Source: a virus
Lineage: Duplodnaviria > Caudoviricetes
Virus record (IMG/VR): IMGVR_UViG_3300021255_000040
Span: 1-64,000 of that record
Reading direction: 5' to 3' (one strand)
DNA length: 64,000 nucleotides
Of this stretch, positions 29,951-33,720 are shown piece by piece. The translations under genes and the position numbers were made by a program. Position 1 is the stretch's first letter; every line of letters starts with the position of its first letter. A model generated the notes under the pieces. That model made no database searches and was not told the DNA's origin. It saw only the letters and a list, made by a program, of their open reading frames with translations.

Positions 29951-31102
29951 ATGAATAACAAAGTACCTCAAATAAATGTTGTGTTTGATAGAAGAAAAGT
30001 AGCCAGTCTCAGCAAGAAAGCTGCTGTAGAACTCAGAATAACCCACAATTATAAACAAAAGTGGATTAGCACAGGCATCATGCTATACTCTAATCAATGG
30101 AAAGATGGCAAGATTATCAACTGCTCAAACATATTGGAGATTAGTCAGACTCTGGAAACTCTTCTAACTGAAGTAAGGCAGGTTATCCTTGAGATGATTC
30201 AGAAGAATAACCTGAACATAATGACTATCTCTGATGAACTAGACAAAAAAAGACAGAGCAAAATATCATTCATTGATTTTTGCCATCAGAGAGTCTCTGT
30301 CAGGAAGTACAGGAAAAGTCAAGATACTAAAGAAAGATATGACAGGTTCATCAAGCACTTTGCTAAATGGGGTAAGATAAAAGAGTTTGAGGATATTAAT
30401 GATAAAAACATCATTGACTATGATAATTATCTGAAGGGATTCAAGCTAAAGTCTTGCAGTAAGTGGAATAACTACCACAGGTTCCTGAACAGTTTTATCA
30501 TAGATGCTGTTGCTGAAGGACATCTCAAGAGGAACCCTTATAAATGGATCAACGTGGATAGAAAGAAAAACAGCAAGGCAATAGAGAGGTGTCTTACTCC
30601 AGTAGAATTCCACAGACTTACTAGAACTAAGATGCCTACCCAGAGTATTGAAAGAGTTAAAGACTTGTTTATCTTTCAGACATACACCTGTCTCAGTTAC
30701 TCTGACCTCAAGGACTTTGATAGTAGAATGATTCAAGAGGTTAAAGGTATGAGTGTATATGTGGGCAGAAGAATCAAAACTACTATGACATTCACCATTC
30801 CCCTGCTGTCTCCAGCTCTTAACATTCTACATAAGTATGATGGCAGGTTGCCTATAATAAGTAATGTGAAATATAATGAGTATCTTAAGATAGTTGCTCA
30901 GACAGCAGGAATAGACAAGCCTATAAGTACCCATTGGGCAAGACATACAGGGGCTACTATATTACTAAATGAAGGAGTACCCATGCAGATTGTTTCAAAG
31001 ATATGTGGACATTCTTCCACCAAGATTACAGAGCAAGTGTATGCCAAACTCTTGGATGAAACAGTTGTAGAGGCTATTCAAGAAGTAGAAGATAAGATAT
31101 AA
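29951..31102 (+). CDS. int: Tyrosine integrase (Bacteroidales type: arm-binding + SAM-like + catalytic domains)
   Basis: 383 aa; N-terminal 'V.LRIT..Y....ISTG', 'F..YT.L.YSDL', 'H.ARHT.AT..LN.G', 'GHS...T...YAK'. Confidence 0.92.
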   Translation: MNNKVPQINVVFDRRKVASLSKKAAVELRITHNYKQKWISTGIMLYSNQWKDGKIINCSNILEISQTLETLLTEVRQVILEMIQKNNLNIMTISDELDKKRQSKISFIDFCHQRVSVRKYRKSQDTKERYDRFIKHFAKWGKIKEFEDINDKNIIDYDNYLKGFKLKSCSKWNNYHRFLNSFIIDAVAEGHLKRNPYKWINVDRKKNSKAIERCLTPVEFHRLTRTKMPTQSIERVKDLFIFQTYTCLSYSDLKDFDSRMIQEVKGMSVYVGRRIKTTMTFTIPLLSPALNILHKYDGRLPIISNVKYNEYLKIVAQTAGIDKPISTHWARHTGATILLNEGVPMQIVSKICGHSSTKITEQVYAKLLDETVVEAIQEVEDKI

Positions 31103-31171
31103 TAAATCCCTCTGACCTATCGCAGGCAAGAGGGACTGGCAATTGTAAATTTGCGTCAAAGAAAACAATTT

Positions 31172-31354
31172 TTATCTTATGGATTTTATCAAATACTCGA
31201 TCTTTAGGATTATCCAGATAGCCAAAGCTACTGGCCATAACATACAGGCTATATTGGCTGACTGGTGTTCTATCTCACCATCATCATTACTATATATAAA
31301 GCAATGTGCGGTTATAGCACCAAGGATATATACTATAGTAACAATCCACTCCAT
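31172..31354 (-). CDS. Small two-TM membrane protein
   Basis: 60 aa with two hydrophobic segments. Confidence 0.45.
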   Translation of the reverse strand: MEWIVTIVYILGAITAHCFIYSNDDGEIEHQSANIACMLWPVALAIWIILKIEYLIKSIR

Positions 31355-31357
31355 ACT

Positions 31358-31960
31358 CTACTTGATTATCTCGATATACTCAGAACTCTCATCTTCAACA
31401 TAAGGATTCTTCTCTTTAACATTAACTTTCACTACATAATGCTTTCGCTGAAACCATCTGAAAAGAAAGAACTTCTTAGGGGGATTAACAGTCTCCTTCT
31501 TACTGGAGACTACAATATGTTTCTCACTCTTAAAGTATGGTTGTATTGCAATCATAGAAGGATACTTAAGTCCTAGCCTGACATTGTACCACTTGTCTCC
31601 TATCAGAGTATCTATAGCCAGCGTAGGTTCCTTAAACAAGGTATCTCTCATGGTTATAGTATCTCTCTTGGTGAATCCTGATTTCACTGCCTGAAGAGCC
31701 TTCAGGTTCTTGTCTTTAATCTTCAGTTCCTTCCTTGTATTGTCAAGCTCCTGAAGGACAGAATCCTTGAAGTAGCCCAACTGGTCAACAGTTAGTTGCA
31801 AAGCTATGTTCTTCTCACCTTCTGCTGCTAATTGAGCATCATAGGCTTTCATATTAGCAGTAGCTACTTCCCACTTATCATTAGCATACTTCACCTGTTG
31901 CCACGTAGCACCTATGATAACTACCAAAACTACAATCGCTAAAATCAGATATTTTTTCAT
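31358..31960 (-). CDS. Membrane-anchored coiled-coil protein (spanin-like)
   Basis: Likely start 31960 (MKKYLILAIVVLVVIIG), N-terminal TM then coiled coil; own TAnnTTTG at 31980-31987. Confidence 0.55.
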   Translation of the reverse strand: MKKYLILAIVVLVVIIGATWQQVKYANDKWEVATANMKAYDAQLAAEGEKNIALQLTVDQLGYFKDSVLQELDNTRKELKIKDKNLKALQAVKSGFTKRDTITMRDTLFKEPTLAIDTLIGDKWYNVRLGLKYPSMIAIQPYFKSEKHIVVSSKKETVNPPKKFFLFRWFQRKHYVVKVNVKEKNPYVEDESSEYIEIIK

Positions 31961-32070
31961 ACTCTTCTTATTTTGGTTGCAAAGATAAGGAAGAATATTC
32001 TTGGAGCAAAGCATCTAAGGATTCTACTAAGACAAAAAGAAAGAGAGGACTGTAGAATCCTCTCTATCTA

Positions 32071-32142
32071 GTTGCGGATGTAGGATTTGAACCTCACCTC
32101 TTGGTTATGAGCCAAACATGCGACCATCACACTGCATCCACG
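32071..32142 (-). tRNA. tRNA-Met(CAT), initiator-like
   Basis: Minus strand CGTGGATG..TTTGG-CT-CAT-AA-CCAAG..GGTTCAAATCC..CATCCGCAA; C1:A72 mismatch; terminator hairpin follows. Confidence 0.8.
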
Positions 32143-32159
32143 ATGTAATTTCAGGTGTT

Positions 32160-32526
32160 TCACAACAGCTTACTCTTTATATTGTTCTTGCTATAAAATT
32201 GTCTTATCTAAAAAGAAGAAAAGCCATAATAATTCCCTAACGGACTTTTCTAGACTCATCATTCTTGCATTTCCACTGGGCGGTCAGTATTCACTTAACT
32301 CGTAAGCTTTTTAACTCCCAAAAGTCCTTTTACCCTCAGCCTTTTTTCCATTGTAGTTTGGCAGGACACCAATATTATAACAAGAACTTTTTTGACCTAT
32401 CGGGGTTTGAGTAATCCTTTATCTCAGAGCTATGTGATATTTCTATCTGCTCTTACAACCCGACTTCTAATCCATATATACCTTCTGGCCTTTTGGATGA
32501 GCATGAGACTACAACTCTCAAGGGTC
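32160..32526 (-). ncRNA. Candidate large structured non-coding RNA
   Basis: No credible ORF; TAnnTTTG at 32531-32538; nested complementary segments (TTGTAGT/ACTACAA, GGACTTTT/AAAAGTCC, TCGGGTT/AACCCCGA, GATA-GAAA-TATC). Confidence 0.5.
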
Positions 32527-32651
32527 GGTGCAAAGGTAAGTATTAATCCTGAAATAACCAAATTTTACTTGAACAATTTTCTATATTTAATTAAAAAACA
32601 GCTTATTATTGCTCAAGTTAACTTAAACATTCATTCAAGTTTCCCCTATTA

Positions 32652-32981
32652 TTATATATAAGGTGTAAAGTCAAAGTCTTCTGTAATCTCTAACCAGTCC
32701 TCAAAGGTAACTCCTCCATATAGCTCAAAGTTAGCTACACACATCAACATGTAGTCTATACATTTATTGAAATTATCAAGGGGCTTGACATTCTTGAAGT
32801 ATACCATATTAGTCAAGAAGACCATATCTCCCAGAGTGGAACCAGTAACATTATAGTACACTTTCCTCTGGGCAGCTTTCTTGACCTTGTTGCCATTCCA
32901 TCTGCCTTCAGTAATACTCATAGCCAACTTCTCAGTGAAGTGTTTGCCATGTTTCTCCAAGTATGCTTCTAGTCCTTTCAT
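32652..32981 (-). CDS. Hypothetical protein, distant paralog of 34324..34740
   Basis: 'Y....G.HF..KL' and 'D....NM' shared. Confidence 0.6.
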   Translation of the reverse strand: MKGLEAYLEKHGKHFTEKLAMSITEGRWNGNKVKKAAQRKVYYNVTGSTLGDMVFLTNMVYFKNVKPLDNFNKCIDYMLMCVANFELYGGVTFEDWLEITEDFDFTPYI

Positions 32982-33058
32982 TACTTATGACTACTAGTTA
33001 TACATAACTTTGACGCTGCAAAGGTACGAAGATTTAATCAAATTACAAAGAAAGATGC

Positions 33059-33196
33059 CTAGTTCTTGCTAGACATCCTCCTTATTTCCTTTTGAACATC
33101 AGGCATTTGACTCATTTTCTTAAGAGTCTCTATCACCTGTTTTCTGCTTCCACCGGAAATCTTGGCTAACTGGTTAATTAATTTGTCCTGATTCAT
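33059..33196 (-). CDS. Small hypothetical protein (45 aa)
   Basis: MNQDKLINQLAKISGGSRKQVIETLKKMSQMPDVQKEIRRMSSKN; overlaps the end of the upstream gene. Confidence 0.4.
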   Translation of the reverse strand: MNQDKLINQLAKISGGSRKQVIETLKKMSQMPDVQKEIRRMSSKN

Positions 33197-33605
33197 GATC
33201 CTCATAAATATCATTAACAGCTTCCACTATCTCTTTGGCTTTAGCTACAGCTTTTTCTACAGAAAACTTCCTTTCAACAACAAGCTGTTTAACAGTGTCA
33301 AATAACCTTGTGTTCTTGGTTGATGGAAACTTGGGAAACTCAGTCTTGACAGGTTCAAATATCTTCTTGAACACATCAGGCAACTCAGGACTAACCTTAA
33401 AGTCAAGTTGAATGCTCAAATGTTCCTTAATGTGTTCTTTACCTGTTGAGTCAATGTAAGTAACCCAGTCATCATCACTTCTAGCACCATTCTCTACTAA
33501 GTTAGATGCAATAACCTCAACCTCTTCACCAGTACTGCGAAGTGTGTACTTACCAACTAATCCTAATGGATTCTGAATATTGGTTTCTTCTTTCTTTTTA
33601 GCCAT
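33174..33605 (-). CDS. Hypothetical protein
   Basis: 143 aa; own TAnnTTTG at 33632-33639. Confidence 0.55.
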   Translation of the reverse strand: MAKKKEETNIQNPLGLVGKYTLRSTGEEVEVIASNLVENGARSDDDWVTYIDSTGKEHIKEHLSIQLDFKVSPELPDVFKKIFEPVKTEFPKFPSTKNTRLFDTVKQLVVERKFSVEKAVAKAKEIVEAVNDIYEDHESGQIN

Positions 33606-33720
33606 AATCTTGTTATTTAATTAATACACTGCAAAGGTACAGCAAAATCAGGATGAAACAAAACAATGCCTATCTAGAACAGAAAGGCACTGAAAATGAA
33701 GAAGTTATAGTGTGAAAATA

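Follow-up and report, generated by a model that had tools for sequence, protein, structure and literature searches.

A free-standing structured non-coding RNA gene lies on the minus strand of the analysed window, a 64,000-nt stretch of a virus genome, and represents a family found in crAss-like phages of Prevotella from rumen and gut. It is very probable that this is a real, conserved, structured RNA gene, with a tRNA gene as a lineage-specific insertion. The tRNA insertion, a GNRA-capped 3′ hairpin, contigs in RNA libraries and distant Bacteroidota relatives are new here.

The window comes from a cattle-gut crAss-like phage, whose 123,180-bp virus record carries direct terminal repeats. Bacteroides crAss-like phages, e.g., DAC15 and Kolpuevirus, have major head proteins 64–65% identical to that of this phage; crAss-like phages rank among the most abundant viruses of the gut. 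The RNA gene occupies a 690-nt gap (32651-31961, minus strand) between a 109-aa gene (32981-32652) and a 200-aa gene (31960-31358), about 1 kb from a tyrosine integrase. No credible ORF was found at 32143-32650 under code 11, code 4 or TAG=Q, which bears out what a sequence-only reading of this DNA had stated. Stop-codon recoding was considered and discarded, with neither TAG=Q nor code 4 opening a frame. Every sense frame contained at least three stops in all 19 sequences compared, and no coding frame is conserved in the relatives. The features of the locus are as follows.

32562-32531, minus strand: host-type (Bacteroidota) promoter with TTTG of the -33 element at 32562-32559, a 20-nt spacer and the -7 box TACCTTTG at 32538-32531
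32526-32394, minus strand: domain 1, closing helix GACC (32526-23) with GGUC (32397-94), about 130 nt downstream
32520-16 with 32508-04, minus strand: P1 hairpin of domain 1
32515-08 with 32357-50, minus strand: loop-loop pairing of 8 bp between the P1 loop (GUUGUAGU) and the domain 2 loop (ACUACAAU)
32498-94 with 32474-70, minus strand: P2 of domain 1 (ATCCA/TGGAT)
32464-56 with 32409-07 and 32404-32399, minus strand: P3 of domain 1
32453-49 with 32430-26, minus strand: P4 of domain 1 (GAGC/GCTC), capped in the window by a GAUA-GAAA-UAUC hairpin
32393-32262, minus strand: domain 2, beginning with an A-rich linker
32386-80 with 32268-62, minus strand: P5 of domain 2
32373-69 with 32278-75, minus strand: P6 of domain 2
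32367-64 with 32327-24, minus strand: P7 of domain 2 (GUCC with GGAC)
32362-60 with 32341-39, minus strand: P8 of domain 2 (GCC with GGC)
32323 to ~32283, minus strand: variable arm of domain 2 with the hairpin CUUA-CGAGU-UAAG at 32306-32294, missing in four lineages
32261-32205, minus strand: 3′ tail of the core with AUGAG, a small hairpin (UCC 32244-42 with GGA 32236-34) and a U-rich run at 32223-32210
32175-72 with 32148-45, minus strand: possible outer helix of the 3′ hairpin (GUAA with UUAC)
32171-64 with 32159-52, minus strand: 3′ hairpin with a GUGA (GNRA-type) tetraloop at 32163-60
32141-32073, minus strand: predicted tRNA, anticodon CAU (ARAGORN and Rfam, 37.4 bits)
32065-32042, minus strand: intrinsic terminator ending the unit (AGAGAGG...CCUCUCU, then a U run), with a sequence conserved in main-group relatives
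29951-31102: tyrosine integrase

The folded RNA spans ~32526 to 32145 (minus strand), ~370 nt, and comprises two domains. Domain 1 carries the invariant words AGAAGUCGG-UUGUA and CCGAUAGG, and is closed by pairing of the 5′ end GACC with GGUC just past CCGAUAGG; the length of the P4 cap varies among lineages. Domain 2 is closed by P5 and P6, while P7 and P8 surround a loop with the invariant GAGGGUAAA (within 32338-29). The two domains are connected by the loop-loop pairing, which was present as eight contiguous pairs in 17 of 19 lineages and in nine sequence versions; besides GUUGUAGU/ACUACAAU, these included GUCACAGU/GCUGUGAU and GCAGUAGU/GCUGCUGU. This pairing could form a pseudoknot within one molecule or a contact between molecules. 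The 3′ GUGA hairpin was found in 10 main-group lineages with compensatory changes.

Five helices had been named from the window alone. The pairings 32514-08/32357-51 (the loop-loop pairing), 32463-57/32407-00 (P3), GAGC/GCTC (P4) and ATCCA/TGGAT (P2) proved to be conserved with compensatory changes. The fifth, 32327-20 with 32249-42, is not conserved among relatives; GGAC at 32327-24 has GUCC at 32367-64 as its partner instead. A UGAG/CUCA hairpin at 32426-32408, given by the single-sequence fold, was also rejected, being disrupted in several lineages.

Homologues were obtained by searching the complete records of phages whose head protein is related, which gave two full-length matches: L175, 76% identical across 32530-32219, and L176, 69% identical. 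Words conserved between the full-length matches provided two search patterns, and scans with these returned 4 and 6 loci from IMG/VR, 21 from JGI metagenomes and 8 from GTDB genomes, three of the latter being Prevotella or Prevotellaceae MAGs from rumen or caecum. The sequences form 18 clusters at 95% identity, and the relatives are 68–84% identical to the window. In all, 18 further lineages (viral, metagenome and Prevotella MAG contigs) keep the two-domain fold, and weaker relatives were found in addition.

With the region as query, blastn gave no match in the 80 loci sharing the 200-aa gene or in five whole related records, none in 49 human-gut crAss-like records, and only the tRNA part was matched in 50,697 GenBank phage records. 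Exact-word scans with a 31-mer of the tRNA and an 18-mer of P3 returned no matches.

Covariation strongly supports the fold. RNAalifold reported both-side changes at 22 of 50 pairs in a 16-lineage alignment (A2) and at 25 of 45 pairs in a 19-lineage alignment (A3). A scan for covarying column pairs added the long-range pairing and corrected one helix. The resulting curated structure for the 19 lineages has 59 pairs in 14 helices, including the pseudoknot, and 96.8% of its base-pair cells are paired. Both-side changes occurred at 33 of the 59 pairs, compared to 18.4 ± 1.8 in shuffled alignments (none of 500 reached 33) and at most 9 with the partners slid. Many G-U pairs, e.g., the invariant G-U at the end of P3, make the fold strand-specific, and the strand is that of the promoter. 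Because the aligned sequences had been selected by patterns, AGAAGUCGG-UUGUA and CCGAUAGG look more conserved than they are; the covariation falls outside these words.

The L175 copy shares with that of the window both domains, the loop-loop pairing, the promoter, the 3′ hairpin, the terminator and the neighbouring 200-aa gene. In contrast, the window alone has a tRNA(CAU) between the 3′ hairpin and the terminator, and the P2 helix and the P4 cap differ between the two.

According to Rfam 15, the window contains a tRNA only, and the RNA region had no other match even at E up to 10. Neither the Prevotella-phage relatives nor the distant copies described below matched any family. The models of ROOL (RF03087) and GOLLD (RF01998) gave no match in the region at E up to 10 and none in the window at gathering score, and seven relatives searched at E up to 1 were likewise negative. 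No tmRNA (Rfam, ARAGORN), RNase P RNA or group I intron was matched in the window or in relatives, in agreement with the absence of such signatures remarked on earlier. RNase P was entertained as a candidate, as AGAAAAGUCC and GAGGGUAAA resemble its conserved regions; it was dropped because no model matches, the family does not conserve AGAAAAGUCC and the two words come in the wrong order along the RNA. A group I intron was likewise set aside, with neither a model match nor exons. The GC content of the RNA region is not raised, and the single-sequence MFE z-score was −0.13 for the sense strand and +0.48 for the antisense strand. As a practical lesson, this RNA would have been lost to the customary screen for single-sequence stability (z = −0.13). 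In the literature, no description of this RNA was found (subscription journals were outside the search), nor was a structured RNA gene found described for crAss-like phages in the literature searchable here.

The Bacteroidota housekeeping-sigma motif consists of TTTG at -33 and TAnnTTTG at -7, with a spacer of 19–21 nt. A full site of this kind lies 4 nt ahead of the folded RNA, with a predicted transcript start at ~32526. The sequence element that had been noticed directly before the RNA is its -7 box, TACCTTTG at 32538-32531 (minus strand), which thus belongs to a full promoter with TTTG. Nine full -33/-7 sites were counted in the window, compared to 3.05 expected, and all were on the minus strand. 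The box is also found in relatives: TAnnTTTG lies 4–5 nt ahead of the conserved GACCC in 12 of 19 lineages, mostly with TTTG 19–20 nt further up. It is absent from this position in the other seven lineages, so some copies must be transcribed from further upstream. In the lineage of L176 and L181, the RNA has no promoter box of its own. A mini-unit of ~100 nt lies directly upstream of the RNA there (L176:1835-2000, minus strand, and likewise in L181), with the promoter box TATCTTTG, a hairpin and a U run.

Main-group relatives possess a strong conserved terminator 45–60 nt past the 3′ hairpin, giving units of ~400–460 nt. Between the terminator of the RNA unit and the promoter of the next gene, a small palindrome, CTTAG-N7-CTAAG, was observed at 32031-32015 (minus strand). 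It is imperfect in the window, also occurs in L175, L188 and L191, and may be a candidate protein-binding site.

Contigs covering the stretch were present in 20 public runs from 15 studies, nearly all of cattle gut, and six of the runs were RNA libraries. Run contigs were mapped onto positions 31000-33700. In RNA library X20, from the source sample, a contig matched 32279-32512 exactly; library X19 contained a contig over 32338-32515 with 2 differences, and library X15 a contig over 31920-32483 with 98.4% identity. The RNA-library contigs come from three cattle-gut studies and are consistent with a transcript; all are assemblies, in which carried-over DNA can be included. The ends of the X19 and X20 contigs (32515 and 32512) are separated by 3 nt and lie ~10 nt inside the predicted start, while a contig of DNA run X2 continues to 32601. 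These closely spaced ends are a weak hint of the 5′ end of a transcript. X20 had no contig over the tRNA and several runs had none over neighbouring genes; such gaps were not counted as evidence. Library X19 also contained diverged relatives of the RNA, which indicates that homologues exist.

The sequence-only reading had placed a tRNA-fMet and a terminator after the RNA. The tRNA with its CAT anticodon (32141-32073) and the terminator (32065-32042) were both recovered; the fMet type was not. The CAU anticodon is that of an initiator tRNA, and it also occurs in elongator Met and Ile2 tRNAs. G1 pairs with C72, where an initiator has a 1-72 mismatch, and the anticodon stem UUUGG/CCAAG has two G-C pairs in place of the three consecutive G-C pairs of an initiator. 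Based on this pair and this stem, the predicted tRNA is elongator-like rather than initiator-type: Met, or Ile2 if lysidine-modified. Its score is low (37.4 bits), and the first pair of its T stem is non-standard, beside four standard ones.

Across the 27 homologous loci, no tRNA adjoins the RNA. That of the window lies between the 3′ hairpin and the terminator, and the flanks can still be aligned with L175 and others. Given this distribution and the conserved flanks in L175, the tRNA is a recent lineage-specific insertion into the 3′ tail of the RNA. Near-identical strains in other cattle samples (X15, X2) also carry it. As no TAnnTTTG box was found between the RNA and the tRNA in the window sequence, co-transcription of the two is plausible. 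The insertion shows that the unit tolerates cargo, and offers a natural test of where the 3′ end of the RNA must lie.

In the MALAT1/mascRNA type of arrangement, RNase P cleavage at a downstream tRNA or tRNA-like element makes the 3′ end of an RNA. The window resembles it in having a structured RNA directly followed by a tRNA in one unit, and its 3′ end might be defined in the same manner. In contrast to that system, the relatives of the window RNA end at an ordinary terminator and the family does not need the tRNA.

The gene order around the RNA differs among phages. L001 and L002, the closest syntenic relatives among the 80 loci sharing the 200-aa gene (81% aa identity), have 110–140 nt between the 109-aa and 200-aa genes, with neither RNA nor tRNA in between. 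The window stretch is therefore an insertion relative to its nearest available kin. In the window, L175 and L188, the RNA gene precedes the 200-aa gene, in L198 and L202 it precedes the 109-aa gene, and in L181 it adjoins amidase and portal genes; depending on the lineage, the gene downstream of it is the 200-aa gene, the 109-aa gene or an 84-aa gene. Thus, among close relatives the gene is present or absent and shifted by one gene, in the vicinity of integrase and lysis genes. This patchy distribution is typical of accessory phage genes, and based on it the RNA gene is probably non-essential. The 200-aa neighbour itself (31960-31358, minus strand) begins with a hydrophobic helix and continues as a long coiled coil; it matches phrog_14010 (function unknown) and looks spanin-like or lysis-related.

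Distant relatives were sought with a covariance model of domain 1 (R1). The window scored 145.3 bits over the full length of the model (E = 1.5e-32), loci in a Spirosoma MAG and a Flavobacterium MAG scored 49 bits, and one metagenome phage contig group scored 26 bits. Three matches of the genome pattern scan (L208, L209 and L210) had no R1 score and were discarded as chance matches. The copies in MAGs are located as follows.

G105:C21:1323-1461 (L218): Flavobacterium MAG copy
G105:C10:126158-126303 (L219): Flavobacterium MAG copy
G108:C24:15780-15928 (L217/L212): Spirosoma MAG copy

One of the two Flavobacterium copies adjoins a tyrosine integrase and the other a gene resembling an IS3-type transposase by its N-terminal sequence, while the Spirosoma copy adjoins a ResIII/Mrr restriction gene. 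One of the two Flavobacterium copies was added by R1 and lacks the search word, so its detection is independent of the pattern. The distant copies start right after a TAnnTTTG box, their 5′ end pairs with bases past CCGAUAGG, and L219 has its own 8-bp long-range pairing. An R1 survey of 151 Flavobacterium genomes under strict filters recovered one, the seed genome only, and the Flavobacterium version had no match among GenBank phages. These copies suggest a wider class on Bacteroidota mobile elements.

Longer and more GC-rich RNAs were observed in two other phage contigs (L183:5544-5909 and L189:2885-3250, both minus strand). They share AGAAGUCGG-UUGUA, ACAUAG and CCGAUAGG, and their 5′ end is paired in the same way. 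L189, with 26 bits against R1, is a candidate member, and so is L183, which has no R1 score.

The idea of a new large phage RNA class, put forward from the letters of the window, has gained homologues, covariation, contigs in RNA libraries, a lack of any conserved frame and a lack of any Rfam 15 match. As to size, the RNA is mid-sized (~370 nt) rather than giant. Like ROOL and GOLLD, which are large multi-helix phage or prophage RNAs with pseudoknots and unknown function, it is elaborately folded. It differs from them in having no sequence or structure match to either, in its length (ROOL ~580 nt, GOLLD >800 nt) and in its hosts, which are Bacteroidota instead of mainly Firmicutes. Genes for tRNAs are often located close to ROOL and GOLLD, and the first sighting of one GOLLD was downstream of a Met-tRNA (PMC12286853; PMC5737381). 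This link, on which the initial analogy was built, does not extend to the present family: with 0 of 27 loci, the tRNA beside the window RNA is a one-off.

As to function, we tentatively propose a folded RNA acting in trans, because the gene is probably non-essential, lies near integrase and lysis genes and has many invariant unpaired bases. Host RNA polymerase would start ~4 nt past the predicted consensus Bacteroidota promoter. The first bases, GACC, would then pair with GGUC ~130 nt downstream and close domain 1; the A-rich linker would lead to domain 2, and the 8-bp pairing would tie the loop of the first hairpin to the domain 2 loop. The GNRA-capped hairpin would end the folded part at ~370 nt overall. 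In the window lineage, the tRNA(CAU) gene, inserted 3 nt past the last helix, would use the promoter and the terminator of the RNA, and an RNase P cut at the tRNA 5′ end could also trim the RNA 3′ end. The folded RNA may bind or sequester a host or phage factor, e.g., a target in defence or takeover. Antisense or cis regulation is less likely than such a trans-acting binding RNA; in the 123-kb phage genome, 10 exact complementary 12-mers were found versus 11 in shuffles.

A broader reading, which we hold to be rather doubtful, regards the RNA as the Prevotella-phage branch of a wider uncatalogued RNA class of Bacteroidota phages and mobile elements, including the Flavobacterium and Spirosoma copies, with an activity of its own such as self-assembly via the 8-bp bridge or catalysis. 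If true, crAss-like phages would have their first known functional large RNA.

Self-assembly into dimers or larger RNA-only particles, as in ROOL, GOLLD and OLE, with the loop-loop pairing as an intermolecular bridge, is unlikely. It would fit the complementary, covarying loops in different domains, the GNRA-capped hairpin and the many conserved unpaired bases. There is also a precedent: the loop pairings of ROOL and GOLLD were first found by covariation and read as tertiary contacts, and then proved to be bridges between chains (PMC12286853). However, the RNA reaches at most half the size of ROOL and is homologous to none of the three.

A ribozyme, e.g., a self-processing or RNA-cutting one with the invariant junction bases as the active site, is improbable. 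The long invariant unpaired runs AGAAGUCGG-UUGUA, CCGAUAGG, UAUAA and GAGGGUAAA would suit it, as would the seven lineages that lack the promoter box yet retain the 5′ closing helix, a combination that suggests processing from a longer transcript. However, no ribozyme family is matched, no cleavage site can be inferred, and the invariance of two of the words is partly due to how the sequences were found.

Still less credible is a regulator of immunity or lysogeny that base-pairs with phage transcripts in the manner of the P4 CI or P1 C4 RNAs. The integrase at ~1 kb and the host-type promoter would be in keeping with this role. Against it, the 12-mer counts above show no excess of complementary sites in the genome, known antisense immunity RNAs are much smaller and less ornate than this one, and the L181 copy adjoins amidase and portal genes instead of an integrase.

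The position of the RNA between a promoter and a tRNA in the window might point to a long 5′ leader of the tRNA, or to a leader or attenuator that acts in cis on the protein gene that follows. Such roles are very improbable: relatives retain the RNA without any tRNA, and the unit's own conserved terminator, together with downstream genes that differ by lineage, contradicts them. Finally, the nearby integrase and the insertion relative to L001 and L002 might suggest an element that works as DNA, such as an attP arm, an origin or a packaging site, or else the remains of a protein gene. Both can be virtually dismissed: the compensatory changes include many G-U pairs that are meaningful for only one of the strands, frames are closed throughout, and RNA libraries contain contigs of the stretch.

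The RNA is a good study target, with a covariation-backed fold, a clean promoter and terminator, RNA-library contigs from three independent cattle-gut studies and distant Bacteroidota relatives; it is also short enough for in vitro transcription, chemical probing and cryo-EM. Proteins of the polyvalent ADP-ribosyltransferase type are usually tied to phage-host conflict. In L188, the gene upstream of the RNA (L188:929-3583) encodes an 884-aa protein with an ADP-ribosyltransferase domain of this "polyvalent protein" type (PF18760).
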